Of a stretch of 51,296 nucleotides of DNA, positions 2,775-19,321 are shown piece by piece (the first letter of the stretch is position 1; each line of letters starts with the position of its first letter). The stretch comes from Shigella phage SFP17. Where the stretch lies: the sequence record MN432485; one strand, written 5' to 3'. Position numbers and translations under genes: made by a program. Below the pieces are notes generated by a model. The model searched no databases. It saw nothing but the letters and a program-made list of their open reading frames with translations, and was not told the origin of the DNA.

Positions 2775-2802
2775 AAAGGAGGCGTTAAGCCTCCTTTTTG
2801 TT
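2775..2802 (+). terminator. intrinsic terminator (AAAGGAGG-loop-CCTCCTTT + T-run)
   Basis: 8-bp GC-containing stem followed by TTTTTGTTG; boundary between convergent blocks. Confidence 0.7.
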
Positions 2803-3183
2803 GCCTTTGCGGTAGGAAAAGTAAAGCATTGACAAAAGACCACTGAAAATTGCAGCGCAATAGATTATAGGATCGTACCACTTCCTTTGCTCACCCTGCA
2901 CAACCTGGATTTTATCAGCCTTGATGGTGTTTGCCTGAATGGTTGACGTAGTGAAATCCTTCTTGCTGGAAGTGTCCACCTTATCAACCGCAGATTCCTT
3001 TATTGTAGTTTCCTGTTTTGTGCTGGTGTCCTGCTTTGCGGTAACGCCAATGGTCTGCTTTACGTTCTCCGCTCCTGCCTGTGCTGTGATTTCCGGCTTA
3101 CTACCGATTAATCCGGTCAGTGGCGTAACGCTTGAACATCCAGACAAAATAACAGCGATCGCGATTACTGATAACTTTCGCAT
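2785..3183 (-). CDS. unimolecular spanin-like outer-membrane lipoprotein with C-terminal TMD
   Basis: N-terminal lipobox ILSGC, C-terminal hydrophobic helix, RBS AAGGA; immediately downstream of endolysin. Confidence 0.65.
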   Translation of the reverse strand: MRKLSVIAIAVILSGCSSVTPLTGLIGSKPEITAQAGAENVKQTIGVTAKQDTSTKQETTIKESAVDKVDTSSKKDFTTSTIQANTIKADKIQVVQGEQRKWYDPIIYCAAIFSGLLSMLYFSYRKGNKKEA

Positions 3184-3185
3184 AA

Positions 3186-3674
3186 TTACAGATCCTTAAT
3201 GCAATATTTAAATTCCACCGCGCGGCGGTTGCGCAGTCCTTTAGACGTTTCTTTCTTTCCTGTTTTTGGATTGGTGTATTTTGTCCATCGCCATAACTGA
3301 TCGCACGCTTCCATATAACGACCGTTATTAATCAGCTTAAGCATAGTTGAATTTCTAAAAGCACCAGTGCCAGCATTGTATGTGAATGAATACATCGCCG
3401 CGCGCATTGTATCAGGAATGTCAACCTTCACACGTTTATCAACTTCATCCTTTGCGATCTTGATATGCTTTGCCAGTAGAGCATCACACTCTCTCTGTGT
3501 GTACGTTTTACCTGGTATTACGTCAGGTCCAGTTATTCCGGCGCAAACCGTCCATATTCCAGCAATATCTTTGTACGGCTTATATTTTACTCCTTCTATT
3601 TCCTCCAGTAGCGGAGAAGTAAGGGCAAGAGCAACGCCAAAAGCCGCAGCGGTCACTCTTTGTTTTATACTCAT
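3186..3674 (-). CDS. SAR endolysin (T4-type lysozyme, GH24)
   Basis: Catalytic E-8aa-D-5aa-T triad ([16 protein letters not shown]); Gly/Ala-rich weakly hydrophobic N-terminus typical of signal-anchor-release domains; start overlaps holin stop. Confidence 0.85.
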
Positions 3675-3889
3675 TATTTACCTCTGATCTCAATAGCTTT
3701 CTTAATATCACCGCATTCAAGAGCGTCACGTAGCGCCTTACTATCACGCCAACGAAGATAAGCGCCCCACATACCAAATGCAGCCATCAAAACTAAGCTG
3801 GCTATTGCGATAGTTGTTTGACCAGTTACCGCGCCAGTGATTGACGCGCCGCCAGTACCGGAAGTTGCAGCGTTTAAAAAATCTTTCAT
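3674..3889 (-). CDS. holin (71 aa, single TMD; pinholin-like)
   Basis: One strongly hydrophobic segment followed by charged C-terminus; RBS AGGAGA; position directly upstream of endolysin. Confidence 0.7.
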
Positions 3890-10773: not shown

Positions 10774-10797
10774 CCCCGCATTGCGGGGTTTTTTTTG
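10774..10797 (+). terminator. intrinsic terminator after primase
   Basis: CCCCGC-att-GCGGGG followed by TTTTTTTTT. Confidence 0.8.
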
Positions 10798-10854
10798 GCC
10801 TTGGCAAATGCTATTATCTGCATTGACATTAACATGCAACATAGGAGAAAGCGC

Positions 10855-12975
10855 ATGGCAATTTACAGAACCGGACAAGCGTCAATGGACGCTCAAGGTT
10901 ATATAACTGGATACGAAACGAAATGGCGAGAGCAACTAGCGCTCATTCGCCCTGGTGCAACAATCTTTTTCATTGATGCACCATTTCAAGCGGCTGTGAT
11001 CAGTGAAGTTGTCAGCGATACACAAATCCGCGCCATCACAACTGGAGGCGCTGAAATTGGGAGAAGCAACTACATTATTTTGCTGCATGACTCAATCACT
11101 GTTGATGGCCTAGCGCAAGATGTTGCGGAAACGCTGCGTTACTATCAAAGCAAAGAAACTCAGATCGAGGAAGCTATTGAATTTTTCAAAAACTTTGACC
11201 TAAAACAGTTGCAAGATCTGGCTAATCAGGTTAAAGGTGATGCAGAGAAAACGGCAGAAGATCGTGCTGCTACTGAACAACTGAAAAACGACACTCAACA
11301 GATAAAGGATTCTGCTGTTGCTGAAACAAACCAGATTAAAGCAGACACCAACGCAATCAAGGCGCAAACGCAACAGATTAAAGATTCTGCGATAACGGAA
11401 GTTAATTCCGCACGCGATCAAGGTGTTTTGGCTGTAAACCAGACTAAAGATCAGGCTGTTTCAGAAATGAATCAGATAAAGGGTGATGTTTCGAATCTGA
11501 AAAACGAAGCTATTTCAGCAAGGGATTCAGCCCAGCAATACATGACTGGCGCTCAATCTGCAAATAACGCCGCTGAAACTGCAAAAAACGGCGCTGTTAC
11601 GGCGAGAAATGAGGCTGAAGAATTTGCTAAAAGCCTTGATGCTGAAAATCTACTCAAAAAAGATGCGAACCTTTCAGATCTGTCTAACATAGAAGTTGCT
11701 CGCCAAAACATGCGAGTCGGTCCTTTTGATACTGTTGGTGAACATACGATTATTTACTCGCCAGAAGGATCTTATAGGCTGGTTATCAAAAATGACGGAT
11801 TACTAATTTATCAGAAAGGTGACGGAACTGAAACCAAGCCATTTGAAATTGCGACTGGTGGGACTGGTGCAACTACTGTTGAGGGTGCTCGCAATAATCT
11901 TGGGCTTGGAACTGCGCAAGATGTTCAATTTAAGAGCATTGTTGCCACAGACGGCGATGTTCTAGTGCCGCAAGCTCGCATTGTCGGCTGTAAAACTGAT
12001 ATTGGTGGTGATAAACGCATCTATCTGATGAACGTAGGTGGCGACTCAAATCCATATGGGTGGGTAAACCTATTGCAAGGGAATTGGCATGAAGGATACT
12101 GGCGGTTCGGAGGAATCAGGGGCGACGGAACGGATCTAAACAATGTCCAGCTATACATGAGTCCAAATAAAGCAGGATACTCCGGCATCGCTTTTAACTT
12201 CATACCTGAGCAGAATGACGCTCATGCTAGCGGGTATGTAAGATCACCTCGCGGTTTTATGGGTCGTTGCTATATGGGTGGCTGGGACGCCGACGCAAAT
12301 AACAGGTTAACGCCGTTTTGGGCTGACACCGTTACTAGAAATAACAGCGGCTGGTCTCCGATAGTGTCAGGTGGGTCTATGTCTGACGGTGGTTACTATA
12401 TGAGAACGTCTTTAGGTATTATTTCAAGCGGCACTACCGATTGGCCCCAGGTTGCTATTCACATGTTAGGTGATGGTCGTTATCATCGCGCATATAATTT
12501 TAGTGAGTCTGGTGGCATTTATTCTTGGGGTAATGATCCGTGGGGTGGAAACTATGACTTTGCAAAAAACCCAACATCTGATCGTGATTTGAAGCACGAT
12601 ATTCAGTACACGGACGGAAAGGAAAGCTATGATCGCGTGATGCAATGGTTGCCAACCATGTTTAAATACAATGGATCTGATATCCAGCGTTTTGGCCTGA
12701 TAGCTCAAGACCTGTTAAAAATCGATCCGCAATACGTGAAACTTGTCCCAGGCTCACCAGTATTTGAAGATGTGATCGGGGTTGATGAAAATGGCGAGGA
12801 ATACATTGATCACCAGATTGAAACTGACAGAAAGGATGATACCTTAGCGCTTGATAGCAACGTTATGCTAACTGATATGGCTTGCGCTATGGTTTACATG
12901 GGAGGAATGATCGAAAAACAGCAAAAGGAGATAGACGAATTAAAGGCGGCTGTTGCTGCACTGCTCAATAAATAA
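10855..12975 (+). CDS. tail fiber protein with C-terminal S74 intramolecular chaperone domain
   Basis: C-terminal SDRDLKHD...[10 protein letters not shown] block typical of autocleaving S74 chaperone; N-terminal QQIKDSA coiled-coil repeats; RBS AGGAGA; ATG at 10855. Confidence 0.85.
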
Positions 12976-12991
12976 CAATATTTTTAACTCA

Positions 12992-13017
12992 AGCGCGGCT
13001 CATGCTGCGCTTTTTTT
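12992..13017 (+). terminator. intrinsic terminator after tail fiber gene
   Basis: AGCGC-loop-GCGCT followed by TTTTTTT. Confidence 0.65.
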
Positions 13018-13153
13018 CGTCTTTATGCCAGTTGCTTACATATCGCTTACAAATGTTTTATATCTATTCCTGACAGTTAGGCGCATACTCTTTGTCGTAA
13101 CATAAATGTTGCAAACTTTTTTTAATTTTTTTAACGTCAAAGAGGAATTTACT

Positions 13154-13855
13154 ATGTCAGATATGACTTTACTGCCTACTGGTGGTGGTTTTGGTGGCGA
13201 AGCTGGCGCGGCTGGTCTTGGCGGTGCTGTTGGCGGCCTGATTGGGTCATGGTTTGGTAACGGCTTTAATGGTCGTGGTGGTTATGGTGGTGATGGTGCT
13301 GCTGTTGCTGTCGGTGCTAACGCTGTTCTTGATGGAATTAATAACATCCAGACAGGAGTTAACAACCTTGGTCTGCAAACTCTGCAAGGCCAAAATTCCA
13401 CAAACCTTGCCGTTGAGCGCTCCGCTGCATCAACCTTTAACGGCATTACCAGCCAGAATACGCAAAACCTGCTTGCATCGGTGCAAGGTTTCGCAGGACT
13501 GAATACCGCGATTGTTAGCGGCACTAACCAGACAGTTGCTGCGATTAATGCTGCTGATGTTAATGCTCTTGAGCGTTCCTATCAGGCACAGATTGCAGCG
13601 GAGAGATGTTGCTGCGAGACTAACCTGAACATTGAGCGACAAGGTAACGCAACGCGAGATCTGATTCGTCAACAGTTTGCTGATTCTCAGGCTGTTTTGA
13701 TTTGCGATATGAAAGCTCAGTTGCAGGAAGCGCGTTTTGCTCTATCTCAGGCAAACCAGACCGCCGCACTGAATTGCAAAATCAACCAGGTAGAGCAATT
13801 GGTAAACTTCAAGTTGCCTACCCCTCAGACTCCGCCTACTGGCTGTTGCGGCTGA
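13154..13855 (+). CDS. glycine-rich protein with Cys clusters (233 aa), unknown function
   Basis: RBS AAGAGGAA; N-terminal ~60 aa Gly-rich, Q/N/T/A-rich middle, CCCE and C-terminal TGCCG; flanked by terminator hairpins. Confidence 0.65.
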   Translation: MSDMTLLPTGGGFGGEAGAAGLGGAVGGLIGSWFGNGFNGRGGYGGDGAAVAVGANAVLDGINNIQTGVNNLGLQTLQGQNSTNLAVERSAASTFNGITSQNTQNLLASVQGFAGLNTAIVSGTNQTVAAINAADVNALERSYQAQIAAERCCCETNLNIERQGNATRDLIRQQFADSQAVLICDMKAQLQEARFALSQANQTAALNCKINQVEQLVNFKLPTPQTPPTGCCG

Positions 13856-13864
13856 TAATAAATC

Positions 13865-13886
13865 AAGCGCCTTTCGGGGCGCTTTT
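13865..13886 (+). terminator. weak hairpin/attenuator after Gly-rich gene
   Basis: AGCGCC-tttcgg-GGCGCT followed by TTTT. Confidence 0.35.
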
Positions 13887-13904
13887 CATCAAGAGGGCGA
13901 GATA

Positions 13905-14228
13905 ATGAAGATCCGTTATGCTGGCTATAAAATACCGCGCATTCATTTGCCGCGAGTTTCAATCGGTAGTGATGATCATGATGATGATTATGAGCGAGAT
14001 AGCAAAAATGATTCAGTTATGGGAAGTGTTATGGAAAGAACTAAGCACTATCCTAAGACATGGGACGCGCACATTGACAAGCCAGGCGGCTTAATGTCGA
14101 TTGTAGAAATGGAATACAAAGAGCTAATGACCGAAAAGGCAGACGGCTCGCATCATGGCATAGAGAAAGAATTAACCGATCTTGCTGCCGCTTGTATCTG
14201 CGCATTGCGTAAAATGAAATCAATGTAA
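13905..14228 (+). CDS. hypothetical acidic protein (107 aa)
   Basis: RBS GAGGG; DDHDDDYERD acidic stretch; no confident family assignment. Confidence 0.55.
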   Translation: MKIRYAGYKIPRIHLPRVSIGSDDHDDDYERDSKNDSVMGSVMERTKHYPKTWDAHIDKPGGLMSIVEMEYKELMTEKADGSHHGIEKELTDLAAACICALRKMKSM

Positions 14229-14242
14229 AAAGGTTAACCGAT

Positions 14243-14734
14243 ATGCAAAACATTAATCAAAATGGCGCTGGCGTGACTCAATTCAACGGGATGAGGCCGA
14301 AACAAATCATTGAGATTGGCGGCGTTAAATGGTCGTTACGGCGTGATGCTACTGATTCATCAATGGCATTCCCACACCAGAAAGTAAACTGGCTTAACGC
14401 CGGATGTGAGCCGCTTGATGGCAACATTCATTATTGTTGGATAATGGGCGTAATTGCGCCAAATATGGGAACTCTTGAGCGTCCGGCTAATGTGATGTAT
14501 ATCGGTTTTCACCAACAGAGGATCATGATCGCACCAAATAGCGTTACTGTTGCAGATCTAGACAGGATGCATGTTTATGTAAGCGATAGTTCAAATTTCG
14601 TTGGTGAGTTTGTAGGAAAATTTTTAAGAATTGAACCTGAAAAGCCAGTAGCAGAAAGGGAATCAATTAGCCCGTGGCCTGTAATGCCAGAACAGCAATC
14701 AACTCCTGAAGGAAAAGAAAATGACGAAAAGTGA
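14243..14734 (+). CDS. hypothetical protein (163 aa)
   Basis: RBS AAAGG; clean ORF. Confidence 0.6.
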   Translation: MQNINQNGAGVTQFNGMRPKQIIEIGGVKWSLRRDATDSSMAFPHQKVNWLNAGCEPLDGNIHYCWIMGVIAPNMGTLERPANVMYIGFHQQRIMIAPNSVTVADLDRMHVYVSDSSNFVGEFVGKFLRIEPEKPVAERESISPWPVMPEQQSTPEGKENDEK

Positions 14735-14978
14735 AGGAATAGATCAGGTAGTTAAAGACCTGTCAGAGAGAGCGCATACAATAGCTGATGAAGGTCATTC
14801 GCCAATATCAATAATGAAATCAGCAATGTCAGATTTTAACGGGATTGGAAGTATGAGCGGAATGTTGTCAATAATGACCACTGGAAAACTTAACGCTCAT
14901 CAAACTGAACTTGCAAAGAGAATTGCTGTTAAGGTGATTGCAGTGCTTGGGATGGCTGAAAGTGAAAAAGGGGCGTAA
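14721..14978 (+). CDS. hypothetical protein (85 aa)
   Basis: RBS AAGGA; stop lies in loop of bidirectional terminator. Confidence 0.5.
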   Translation: MTKSEGIDQVVKDLSERAHTIADEGHSPISIMKSAMSDFNGIGSMSGMLSIMTTGKLNAHQTELAKRIAVKVIAVLGMAESEKGA

Positions 14979-14990
14979 TGCCCCTTTGTT
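14965..14990. terminator. bidirectional intrinsic terminator between convergent blocks
   Basis: AGGGGC-gtaat-GCCCCT with T-runs on both strands. Confidence 0.75.
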
Positions 14991-18114: not shown

Positions 18115-18342
18115 ATGAAAAAGTTAATCGCCGTTTTGATTGCCACCGTTGCACTGACTGGATGTGCAAATATGCCTAAGCGTGAATGCACGGCTATTTA
18201 TGAAAATAGCGGCATGCAGTATTCAGTTGCTATTTTTGGAGCAAAACGAGTTGGCGATCGCACTCTTGTTAAGGCTGGCTATCCGTTTAATTTTCAGTGG
18301 GTAAGTATTGATAACTTTAAAAACGCTGATTGCAGCATGTAA
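18115..18342 (+). CDS. cor: Cor-like superinfection-exclusion lipoprotein
   Basis: Signal peptide with lipobox LTGC; 75 aa; between tail and recombination modules; strong RBS AAGGAGA and own motif promoter. Confidence 0.55.
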   Translation: MKKLIAVLIATVALTGCANMPKRECTAIYENSGMQYSVAIFGAKRVGDRTLVKAGYPFNFQWVSIDNFKNADCSM

Positions 18343-18376: not shown

Positions 18377-19014
18377 TGGTCGTAAACATCAGTCTTTATT
18401 GCAATTATTGAATTTCCGTTATTTGTTATAGAGCCTGTTCCTGGCGTTGTCCTTGCTGCACCTATCCTTGTGCTTGAACCATCATACCTGCATGATGTAT
18501 ATATGTCAGACGCACCCATACCTATAACCGCACCAAGCCTTGATGGGCAAACAGCATAAGAACCAGATAATGTCTGATCTATATTAGTTCCCCCTGAAGA
18601 ACCAGGAGTACCAATTGTCACAAGGTCTGTTAGCACCCTGCTTTCATTAGTTAAAACCAACTTGCCGCTTGCATCCCATATAGCCATGCCATATTTTGGT
18701 AGAGTTTGAGGGAATATGGCAAATATATAAACAGTCATTGTAAATGATTGACCGTATGGATTGCCTCCGTTTACATAAATGTTGCCACCATTCCTGTAAG
18801 CTATTAATGCAGTTGGCTGCTGTGTGTTTGTTGTTTTTATAAATGCCATACATGGATAAGATTGGTTTAATGGTATATTTGCGCTTGCGCTATGATAGGC
18901 AGAAGTGCCAGAAGATGAATAAGTGTACTTGCCATATAAGCAAAATGGCGTTGATTTTGGTGTGATAAATGGATTCCCATTTGATAAAGATAACATTGCT
19001 CCATATTCAGCCAT
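18373..19014 (-). CDS. putative tail-tip associated protein, paralog B (213 aa)
   Basis: ATG at 19014 with RBS GAGAGGG; N-terminus MAEYG shared with upstream gene; internal WDASGK repeat of the N-terminal WDANGK. Confidence 0.6.
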   Translation of the reverse strand: MAEYGAMLSLSNGNPFITPKSTPFCLYGKYTYSSSGTSAYHSASANIPLNQSYPCMAFIKTTNTQQPTALIAYRNGGNIYVNGGNPYGQSFTMTVYIFAIFPQTLPKYGMAIWDASGKLVLTNESRVLTDLVTIGTPGSSGGTNIDQTLSGSYAVCPSRLGAVIGMGASDIYTSCRYDGSSTRIGAARTTPGTGSITNNGNSIIAIKTDVYDQ

Positions 19015-19015
19015 T

Positions 19016-19321
19016 TTAAGCCCTCTCAAGAAAAACAACTAACTCGCACTTTGAAGAAGAATACCTATTTGGACCAACTGACGATATAGGACTAATTCTT
19101 ATTGTATTTCCAGATGCCACTATTTCCCTTCCAACTCCTCTAGCGCCTTCATCAAGTGAAACAACATACCCAACCTTAAAACCACTTGGAATGCTAAAGC
19201 TCCACGATCCGCTTGTCTGACCAGCGGCAAGACTGATGACACCAACAACGGAAACTGGCTTGATTCCGTAGTTGTTATACTTCCCGTTAGCATCCCACGT
19301 TGAAACACCATATTCAGCCAT
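19016..19321 (-). CDS. putative tail-tip associated protein, paralog A (101 aa)
   Basis: ATG at 19321 with strong RBS GGAGG; MAEYGVSTWDANGK N-terminus; directly downstream of J. Confidence 0.55.
   Translation of the reverse strand: MAEYGVSTWDANGKYNNYGIKPVSVVGVISLAAGQTSGSWSFSIPSGFKVGYVVSLDEGARGVGREIVASGNTIRISPISSVGPNRYSSSKCELVVFLERA

Follow-up and report, generated by a model that had tools for sequence, protein, structure and literature searches.

We analysed a stretch of 51,296 nucleotides from Shigella phage SFP17 (sequence record MN432485), hereafter called the window, and focused on a cassette of four co-oriented open reading frames (ORFs), named g1 to g4, that occupies positions 13154-14978 of the + strand and is bounded by terminator-like hairpins. 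SFP17 is a Hanrivervirus (Drexlerviridae, Tempevirinae), i.e. a virulent T1-like siphovirus, and the DNA of the 2.2-kb cassette region is 95-97% identical to that of Escherichia phage egaa, Shigella phage pSf-1 and other Hanrivervirus genomes. In all probability, this cassette is a mobile and dispensable operon restricted to virulent phages and dominated by its first product, g1, a member of a large uncharacterised protein family with a glycine zipper and a CCC motif. The features of the locus, in window positions, are as follows.

10795-12975, lateral tail-fibre gene, with a C-terminal Peptidase_S74 intramolecular-chaperone domain (PF13884, E 2e-08)
12991-13012, + strand, hairpin 3' of the tail-fibre gene (9-bp stem with 6 GC pairs, TTTTT tail), upstream boundary of the cassette
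13018-13153, + strand, leader of 136 bp, AT-rich (31.6% GC), with an AAAGAGG Shine-Dalgarno sequence near its 3' end
13154-13855, + strand, g1, 233 aa, PHROG 9288
13865-13884, + strand, hairpin between g1 and g2 (AAGCGCC-loop-GGCGCTT, GC-rich), followed by TTTT
13905-14228, + strand, g2, 107 aa, PHROG 9157
14243-14734, + strand, g3, 163 aa, PHROG 8329
14721-14978, + strand, g4, 85 aa, PHROG 7239
14967-14987, hairpin common to the 3' ends of g4 (+ strand) and ssb (- strand), downstream boundary of the cassette

The four ORFs had been proposed as genes in a previous reading of the DNA letters (the sequence-only reading), and all are present. Each one has a full-length match to a PHROG of its own (E 1e-44 to 1e-124), the four PHROGs being annotated as of unknown function. 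Against six Hanrivervirus relatives, the ratio of non-synonymous to synonymous substitution rates (dN/dS) was 0-0.07 for g1, 0.04-0.11 for g3, 0.05-0.11 for g4 and 0.06-0.38 for g2, the least constrained gene of the cassette. These are real genes, under strong purifying selection where they are present. In phage T1, only a bidirectional terminator separates the tail-fibre gene (ST26) from ssb (ST27), whereas 1.9 kb lie between the homologous genes here. Because this junction is empty in T1, the cassette is an insertion at the tail-fibre/ssb junction. On its 3' side, on the opposite strand, lie ssb and the genes for an Erf-like annealase and an exonuclease. The terminator placed earlier behind the tail-fibre gene corresponds to the hairpin at 12991-13012. 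The qualifier "bidirectional" given to the downstream one is plausible but half-shown, because the terminator scan scored the hairpin at 14967-14987 on the - strand only. A hairpin of the AAGGGGCC..GGCCCCTT type also closes the cassette in phage eiAU and Yersinia phage vB_YenM_12.

The AT-rich upstream region already pointed out in the sequence-only reading stands out from the window (44.1% GC), while the GC content of the cassette itself (45.4%) does not deviate. No sigma-70 consensus promoter was found in the leader (13018-13153) and none was found on the cassette strand in vB_YenM_12; only weak candidates were seen upstream of the cassette in eiAU. When the upstream regions of carriers were aligned, conservation was patchy, with a leader block, CATACTCTTTGTCGTAAC..TGTTGCAAA, partly conserved in Tlsvirus and eiAU. 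An imperfect, partly conserved inverted repeat (CTCTTTGTCGTAAC-ATAAA-TGTTGCAAA) was also observed at 13085-13115, 40-70 nt 5' of the g1 start, with counterparts upstream of g1 in otherwise unrelated phages (loci L007, 4775-4800, and L014; CTCTTTGTGTAAC-TTAGTT-GTTACAAAA in eiAU). This repeat, which would travel with the cassette, may serve as an operator or form a stem-loop in the 5'-UTR. The start of g1 was set at 13154 because 50 out of 52 g1 homologues begin with MSDM or MTDM and a strong AAAGAGG lies about 8 nt 5' of that ATG; on the same grounds, a longer ORF starting at 13106 was not used. The internal hairpin described in the sequence-only reading is indeed there after g1, and together with its T-run it is conserved across Tempevirinae, Seuratvirus, Nonagvirus and a Yersinia phage. 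It would act as a partial terminator or attenuator, or as an mRNA stabiliser, and because it follows g1, the g1 product would be far more abundant than those of g2-g4. The start of g4 overlaps the end of g3 by 14 nt, and translational coupling of these two genes is therefore likely.

We then looked for the cassette in other genomes. All four genes were found, in unchanged order, in Tempevirinae, Seuratvirus and Nonagvirus, Sashavirus, Eiauvirus, Yersinia phages and metagenomic phages. In Seuratvirus KurtStettler, Eiauvirus eiAU and Yersinia phage vB_YenM_12, the colinear genes are of similar size, and the homology of their four products was confirmed by pairwise alignment. A scan of viral contigs with a g3 profile recovered 33 loci, with g3 identities down to 42%, and about 30 of the 33 carry colinear g1-g2-g3-g4. 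Metagenomic phages keep this layout even when their g1 shares just about 30% identity: in L043, the genes after g1 match the g2 and g3 hidden Markov models (HMMs) at E 6e-19 and 8e-29, and in L051 a set of genes of 259, 83, 131 and 74 aa stands before the terminase genes. The alignments of distant g1 sequences held no conserved stretch on which wider locus scans could be based. Depending on the lineage, the upstream neighbour is an S74 fibre gene, a fibre gene plus Tfa, a gene for a 1380-aa protein, lysis genes on the opposite strand, early genes or terminase genes; the four genes therefore move as a unit. What could have passed for a local oddity of this phage is thus a fixed four-gene unit common to many phage lineages. 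All the named carriers are virulent phages. Furthermore, no copy was found by g1 or g3 patterns in 185,579 bacterial genomes (one per species), and the cassette therefore has no prophage context. Three unannotated INPHARED records labelled as C. jejuni phages (MG065669, MG065675 and MG065636, "Campylobacter phage A123/A118/A16a") are 94-97% identical to the Hanrivervirus region and are probably mislabelled or contaminant sequences.

The cluster is accessory, as had been suggested, and is not core in all relatives: T1 lacks it, and Seurat, the type phage, has lost g1-g3, so that g4 directly follows the fibre gene. Nested deletions entering from the fibre side were found in SHIN8, PLYYY01, GottfriedDienst, KS_W4 and WildeMaa, and partial cassettes in locus L031 and in the 9NA-like L037. 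In T5-like Epseptimaviruses, only g1 fragments are left, behind an S74 fibre gene. Loss of the cassette seems to be collateral damage from tail-fibre swapping.

Several individual loci illustrate these remodelled states. In the T5-like Salmonella phage polluks (Epseptimavirus; L005, 4749-5340), frameshifted g1 fragments (MSDRTLLPT..., ...KKYCCETSLNL...) lie just behind the S74-type fibre gene in a locus devoid of g2-g4. Many T5-like genomes, also of the Eps7 type, retain just a 55-residue g1 remnant that is often unannotated. These remnants look like the product of hitch-hiking with a swapped fibre module and later decay. In KurtStettler (MZ501091; L004, 3981-5513), a 510-aa ORF fuses an S74-domain "lateral tail fiber chaperone" in frame with g1 at a junction where ...GLLVQVCR is followed by EAGAAGIGG..., with loss of the end of the S74 domain and of the first ~16 residues of g1; S74 and g1 are separate genes in other Seuratviruses. 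Either a viable phage truly underwent this deletion, or the fusion arose during assembly of the sequence. In Shigella phage 2019SD1 (NC_049820; L009, 2281-5968), the fibre, S74 and g1 sequences lie in inverted and duplicated pieces, g2 is missing and g3 and g4 are intact, an arrangement due either to natural rearrangement or to faulty assembly. Finally, a small fifth Cys-rich ORF was seen directly 3' of g4 in Seuratvirus and 9NA-like loci (L004, 6782-6985; L029, 6814-7017; L037, 6639-6851). Its product (MCGNTNRCCLGSPATQ...CNCK...) has CC/CCC motifs and a Pro-rich stretch; its resemblance by eye to a paralogue of the g1 C-terminus was unsupported (BLASTP E 0.38).

The composition of g1 is that described in the sequence-only reading, with a Gly-rich N-terminus (glycine makes up 35% of residues 1-60), an N/Q/T/A-rich middle and Cys motifs. 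The protein begins with the tip MSDMTLLP, has a Gly/aromatic/Arg linker reaching about residue 50 and ends with PTPQTPPTGCCG. Among its seven Cys, the CCC at 152-154 and C184 are invariant, and a GCCG motif lies at the C-terminus. A (G/A)xxx(G/A) ladder of seven rungs (G11-G15-A19-G23-G27-G31-G35) runs through a hydrophobic segment; in the alignment of homologues, G27 and G31 never vary, and conservation reaches 90% or more at G23 and G35. An HMM search over 1.84 billion representatives gave 127 clusters at 50% identity, mostly of 200-290 aa and matched end to end, and 74 full-length representatives were analysed. Their N-terminal part consists of an M-[STD]-D-M-x-L tip, a Gly-rich hydrophobic segment and a Gly/Trp/Phe/Arg linker. 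The body contains one to four copies of a unit of ~22 residues ending in QGF[AS]G[LV]N, then a GYExRLAT motif, and ATRxLI and LCDAK motifs; CCC is present in 66 of the 74. The tail is either Thr/Pro-rich (e.g. TTTTTTTTTPAA) or Cys/Gly-rich (e.g. YGCGNGCGC). Moreover, 14 of these 74 representatives have a clear transmembrane segment (Kyte-Doolittle hydropathy, KD >= 1.6; e.g. WLWIIVVFALLFGW), and another 41 score between 1.0 and 1.6. The flank before the hydrophobic segment is acidic throughout the family (176 acidic versus 57 basic residues over the 74 proteins). Mainly because of the transmembrane helices of its relatives, of those scoring 1.0-1.6 and of this acidic flank, we consider g1 as putatively targeted to the membrane by its glycine-zipper segment. 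The loose likeness to Gly-rich toxin or receptor-interaction domains seen in the sequence-only reading finds no support; the Gly-rich part is a conserved glycine-zipper hydrophobic segment, likely a membrane anchor.

Distant g1 homologues with a true transmembrane helix were observed in two metagenomic loci (L045, 3482-5996, and L042), where they have Gly/Tyr-rich N-termini, two CCC motifs and tails of the GCGCGC type. They follow the holin and endolysin genes of a phage whose lysis families (PG_binding_1 and Phage_holin_1) suggest a Gram-positive host, and they adjoin a BclA_C-domain gene and a DUF7841 gene; g2-g4 are absent. In both loci, small Gln-rich ORFs precede them.

The AlphaFold2 model of g1, built from a 52-sequence alignment, predicts a disordered region (residues 1-50) and one long helix (residues 51-220) that includes a QGFAGLN unit, with a predicted local distance difference test (pLDDT) score of 59. 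The helical region has a weak periodicity of 3.67 residues (p about 0.02). A canonical coiled coil was considered and is not claimed, because the heptad register is not continuous. Matches of g1 to Gly-zipper_Omp and SlyB were weak and not significant (E 0.04 and 3.6). A likeness to the influenza HA2 fusion peptide appeared in single-sequence phmmer searches (E 0.05-0.5) and disappeared with the 52-sequence profile, which points to chance or composition. When 38 diverse distant homologues were searched, no Pfam family matched any of them, and the only PHROGs matched were 9288 and 16490, both of unknown function.

The three other products gave fewer clues. The N-terminal half of g2 is variable: it is acidic here (SDDHDDDYERD), in line with the acidic N-terminus reported earlier, and His-rich in many homologues. 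In L032, L034, L041 and P0195-P0207, poly-His tracts (HHHHHYHHGHH, HQHIHHHHHH) stand in place of the acidic stretch, which suggests that metal binding may be a recurrent property of g2. Its C-terminal 65 aa are conserved (PGGxMSIVEMEYKELM..x15..KELTDLAAACICAL) and contain an E70xxE73-x15-E89xxD92 pattern that fits the metal-binding pattern of MazG. This pattern is kept in 27 of 28 aligned homologues, D92 being replaced by E in vB_YenM_12, and the second motif, KELTD, becomes KENLxH in the distant cassettes L043 and L050. The g2 of the window has no Pfam match and NCBIfam gave nothing relevant; PRA-PH (PF01503) weakly matched one out of four g2 homologues (E 0.016), and a g2 profile weakly matched 2p06, the archaeal MazG-like AF_0060, in the PDB (E 0.048). 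As all these signals lie below curated thresholds, g2 is at most weakly assigned as MazG-like, or all-alpha NTP-PPase-like, and its membership is not established. In the model of g3, a beta-sheet and two helices are predicted (pLDDT of the core about 90), followed by an acidic and disordered C-terminal tail; sequence and fold searches found no significant relative of g3 outside its own family. A His/Cys enzyme was rejected for g3: H45, C55 and H110 are invariant in close homologues and lost in the distant homologue of L043. In g4, TGKL and RIAVK motifs are conserved and no known relatives were found. No signal peptides were detected in g2-g4.

We also screened g1-g4 for similarity to characterised systems. 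None of them showed homology to a toxin, a tail-fibre chaperone, a spanin or a defence protein, PADLOC returned no match at E <= 1, and Pfam and NCBIfam gave no named anti-defence family. Homology to structural or tail-fibre assembly proteins, which the sequence-only reading had named as a check, was not found either: the only Pfam or PHROG match to a tail protein was one to a tape-measure protein (E 0.007), which we take as chance, and a derivation of g1 from a tape-measure or fibre protein was rejected since pairwise BLASTP returned Gly-rich noise alone. Several GenBank labels given to these genes ("sugar-binding protein", "lateral tail fiber chaperone", "TerL", "matrix protein", "transcriptional regulator") find no support in these searches; the sole exception among annotations is "putative pyrophosphatase", used by others for g2, where a weak MazG-like signal exists. 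The literature searched, including that on BASEL, on KanT1 Drexlerviridae, on Seuratvirus genomics, on the Sf11 structure, on the vB-EcoS-95 and Sfin-1 proteomes and on an accessory-gene screen, does not discuss g1-g4. No g1-like protein is listed in the virion proteome of vB-EcoS-95 (PMC6340994). This proteome is uninformative on g1 because the phage appears to lack the cassette, as implied by its gene numbering (0086-0089 between the J-side genes and the fibre gene).

How, then, could the cassette act? We tentatively favour a possible, though not probable, scenario in which g1 is a membrane homo-oligomer acting on the envelope and g2-g4 are its cytoplasmic helpers. A self-contained, mobile and dispensable four-gene operon of virulent siphoviruses, inserted at the tail-fibre/ssb junction, would produce its lead protein in excess over g2-g4 by means of the hairpin. 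The g1 protein would insert in the cytoplasmic membrane through its glycine zipper as a homo-oligomer, which its cysteines would lock, unless they bind metal. It would then act at the envelope of the infected cell, either by blocking DNA entry of other phages or by altering the state of the membrane or envelope. It would be assisted by low-abundance cytoplasmic partners, such as chaperones, assembly factors or regulators, namely the small helical g2, which would be MazG-like and bind metal, g3 with its novel beta-rich fold, and g4. The cassette is neither the lysis system of this phage nor the known Cor exclusion gene, because the window already encodes both: T1-type holin, endolysin and u-spanin (T1 gp11-like) genes at 2788-3889 (- strand), 10 kb from the cassette, and a cor homologue at 18115-18339 (+ strand), with 55% identity to T1 cor. 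Homologues of T1 gp31/gp32 are also present in the window (18463-19312, - strand), adjoining the J-like tip protein.

A series of observations weighs against this scenario. The Gly-rich segment of the window g1 has a hydropathy of 1.13, below the usual transmembrane threshold. The model of g1 is of low confidence and has no continuous heptad register, so that neither "rod" nor "coiled coil" is established. Pfam, NCBIfam, PADLOC, PDB sequence and fold searches of g1-g4 were negative or marginal and tied no function to them. The acidic N-terminal flank hints at an N-out/C-in topology; a C-terminal domain outside the cytoplasm would fit the Thr/Pro tails, the conserved Cys and the many polar N, Q and T residues. 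SFP17 already encodes Cor, and superinfection exclusion has most often been described in temperate phages. Finally, the cassette adjoins lateral fibre genes in most lineages, which would also fit a fibre-related role. The host-interaction or anti-defence function proposed in the sequence-only reading is neither confirmed nor excluded.

The fibre-related role is the basis of an alternative in which g1 belongs to the virion as an accessory part and forms a fibrous homo-trimer (side fibre, whisker or fibre-associated factor) locked by its Cys after lysis, with g2-g4 as assembly factors. The position of g1 directly 3' of lateral tail-fibre/S74 genes in Tempevirinae, Seuratvirus, Nonagvirus and T5-like phages, the in-frame S74::g1 fusion of KurtStettler, the neighbouring BclA_C (fibre-tip-like) gene in the Firmicutes-type phage, a polar N/Q/T/S/A/G composition with a long predicted helix, and the high expression of g1 implied by the hairpin after it all speak for such a protein; its Pro-rich ...PTGCC end also recalls a collagen-type cystine knot. 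We nevertheless consider it unlikely. The cassette lies far from fibre genes in vB_YenM_12, L041, L043 and L051, T1 has a fibre without g1, and Seurat and relatives keep functional fibres without g1-g3. A specific docking site would hardly explain why g1 N-termini are near-identical across unrelated virion modules. A true transmembrane helix is present in distant members, and g1 resembles neither the fibre nor the tape-measure protein of its own phage, nor Tfa or S74 domains. Quite unlikely, in our view, is a counter-defence or host-takeover module in which g2 would be a MazG-like nucleotide pyrophosphohydrolase removing a signalling or toxic nucleotide, with g1, g3 and g4 localising or regulating it. 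Variable presence and lateral mobility are usual for anti-defence loci, and the E70xxE73-x15-E89xxD92 pattern, the weak PF01503 and 2p06 matches, the pyrophosphatase label and the His-rich tracts implying metal binding point in the same direction. However, every MazG signal is subthreshold, the second motif is altered in L043 and L050, and g2 is the least constrained gene and stands 3' of an attenuating hairpin, the abundant and best-conserved product being the non-enzymatic g1; in addition, neither PADLOC nor any named anti-defence family matched, and the cassette evolves slowly, which is not arms-race-like.

A role of g1 in lysis, as a periplasm-spanning protein of the i-spanin type or a holin/antiholin-type regulator of lysis timing, appears very unlikely. 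A complete T1-type lysis set already exists in the window, no o-spanin partner was found, phages without g1-g3 still lyse their hosts, g1 homologues occur in a phage whose PG_binding_1 and Phage_holin_1 genes suggest a Gram-positive host, in which spanins would be needless, and g2-g4 would be left unexplained. These points outweigh an overall design like that of Rz, the i-spanin of lambda, with a hydrophobic anchor at the N-terminus, a long helix, conserved cysteines and an end rich in Pro, a predicted helix of 170 residues whose length of about 25 nm would be near the width of the periplasm, the proximity (1-2 kb at most) of endolysin or holin genes to the cassette or g1 homologue in L041, L043/L044 and L045, and the fact that glycine zippers are typical of channel-forming oligomers. 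As for a classical moron, whose Gly-rich product, a toxin or a receptor-interaction protein, would be of use to a lysogen or lethal to competitors, only the layout called moron-like in the sequence-only reading holds, with an insertion between genes adjacent in T1, terminators on either side and an AT-rich leader; the Gly-rich N-terminus is superficially like the translocation domains of colicins. Temperate carriage and lysogen benefit were not found, since every named carrier is virulent and the cassette is absent from the bacterial genomes searched; the GC content is ordinary, no promoter was detected in the leader, no cytotoxic or receptor-binding domain and no toxin homology was seen, and the Gly-rich part is a conserved hydrophobic zipper rather than a disordered translocation domain. 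The distribution data largely refute this explanation, which we regard as highly improbable.

Whichever function it has, the unit of four genes passes between six or more unrelated virulent-phage lineages. Strong purifying selection acts on it, although phages can do without it on laboratory hosts. Such a pattern is typical of genes that are useful only in nature, in phage competition or in the face of host defences or envelope stress. Carriers exist in BASEL (KarlJaspers, PaulSarasin, DanielBernoulli, KurtStettler and SeppeHuegi) together with deletion variants among close relatives (Seurat, GottfriedDienst, SHIN8 and KS_W4), and the function of the cassette is therefore directly testable in isogenic or near-isogenic phages. 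In a broader and decidedly speculative extension of the membrane scenario, the g1 family would be a new class of phage membrane proteins with a glycine-zipper anchor, a variable helical repeat body and a CCC knot. In Gram-negative phages, it would form an exchangeable envelope machine with g2 as a degenerate MazG-like, metal-binding partner, g3 as a new beta fold and g4 as a small helical protein. If so, this class would reach from enterobacterial phages to one whose lysis genes suggest a Gram-positive host, and the machine, e.g. a DNA-entry block or a membrane-remodelling device, would be swapped whole among unrelated virulent phages.

Lastly, we compared the cassette with known systems. Like Cor, Llp and Imm (T1 cor, T5 llp and T4 imm), it is non-essential, lies beside host-recognition genes, is carried by lytic phages and is easily lost or exchanged; the protection of the infected cell against further phage entry, targeted to the envelope, would also be shared if our proposal is correct. 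These are single small genes, however, in contrast to a four-gene operon with a 233-aa Cys-bearing helical g1, with which they have no sequence or fold similarity and which has no lipobox. The g2 product weakly resembles MazG and all-alpha NTP-PPase proteins (PF03819/PF01503; 2p06 AF_0060-like) as a small, putatively helical protein with ExxE...ExxD on two helices, but its matches are far below the cut-offs, only ~65 residues are conserved, the second motif is lost in distant cassettes and an extra His/Asp-rich tract precedes this region at the N-terminus. For g3 only, the Eag/DUF1795 chaperones of type VI secretion systems (SciW, PA0094) and the DcrB/PsbP-like fold can be named as a comparison, with no significant structural relative found. 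With the lambda Rz i-spanin, g1 shares a putative N-terminal anchor, a long predicted helical body, conserved Cys, a Pro-rich end and a length that would allow it to span the periplasm; it differs by its location outside the lysis cassette, without an adjacent or embedded lipoprotein ORF, a lipobox or detected homology. Compared with glycine-zipper proteins (SlyB/PCP lipoproteins, VacA and the Pfam Gly-zipper families), g1 has no lipoprotein signal, a single hydrophobic segment instead of a hairpin and an unrelated remainder, but it has the same small-xxx-small ladder on one helix face, conserved within a hydrophobic segment that, in distant members, is predicted to be an outright transmembrane helix.

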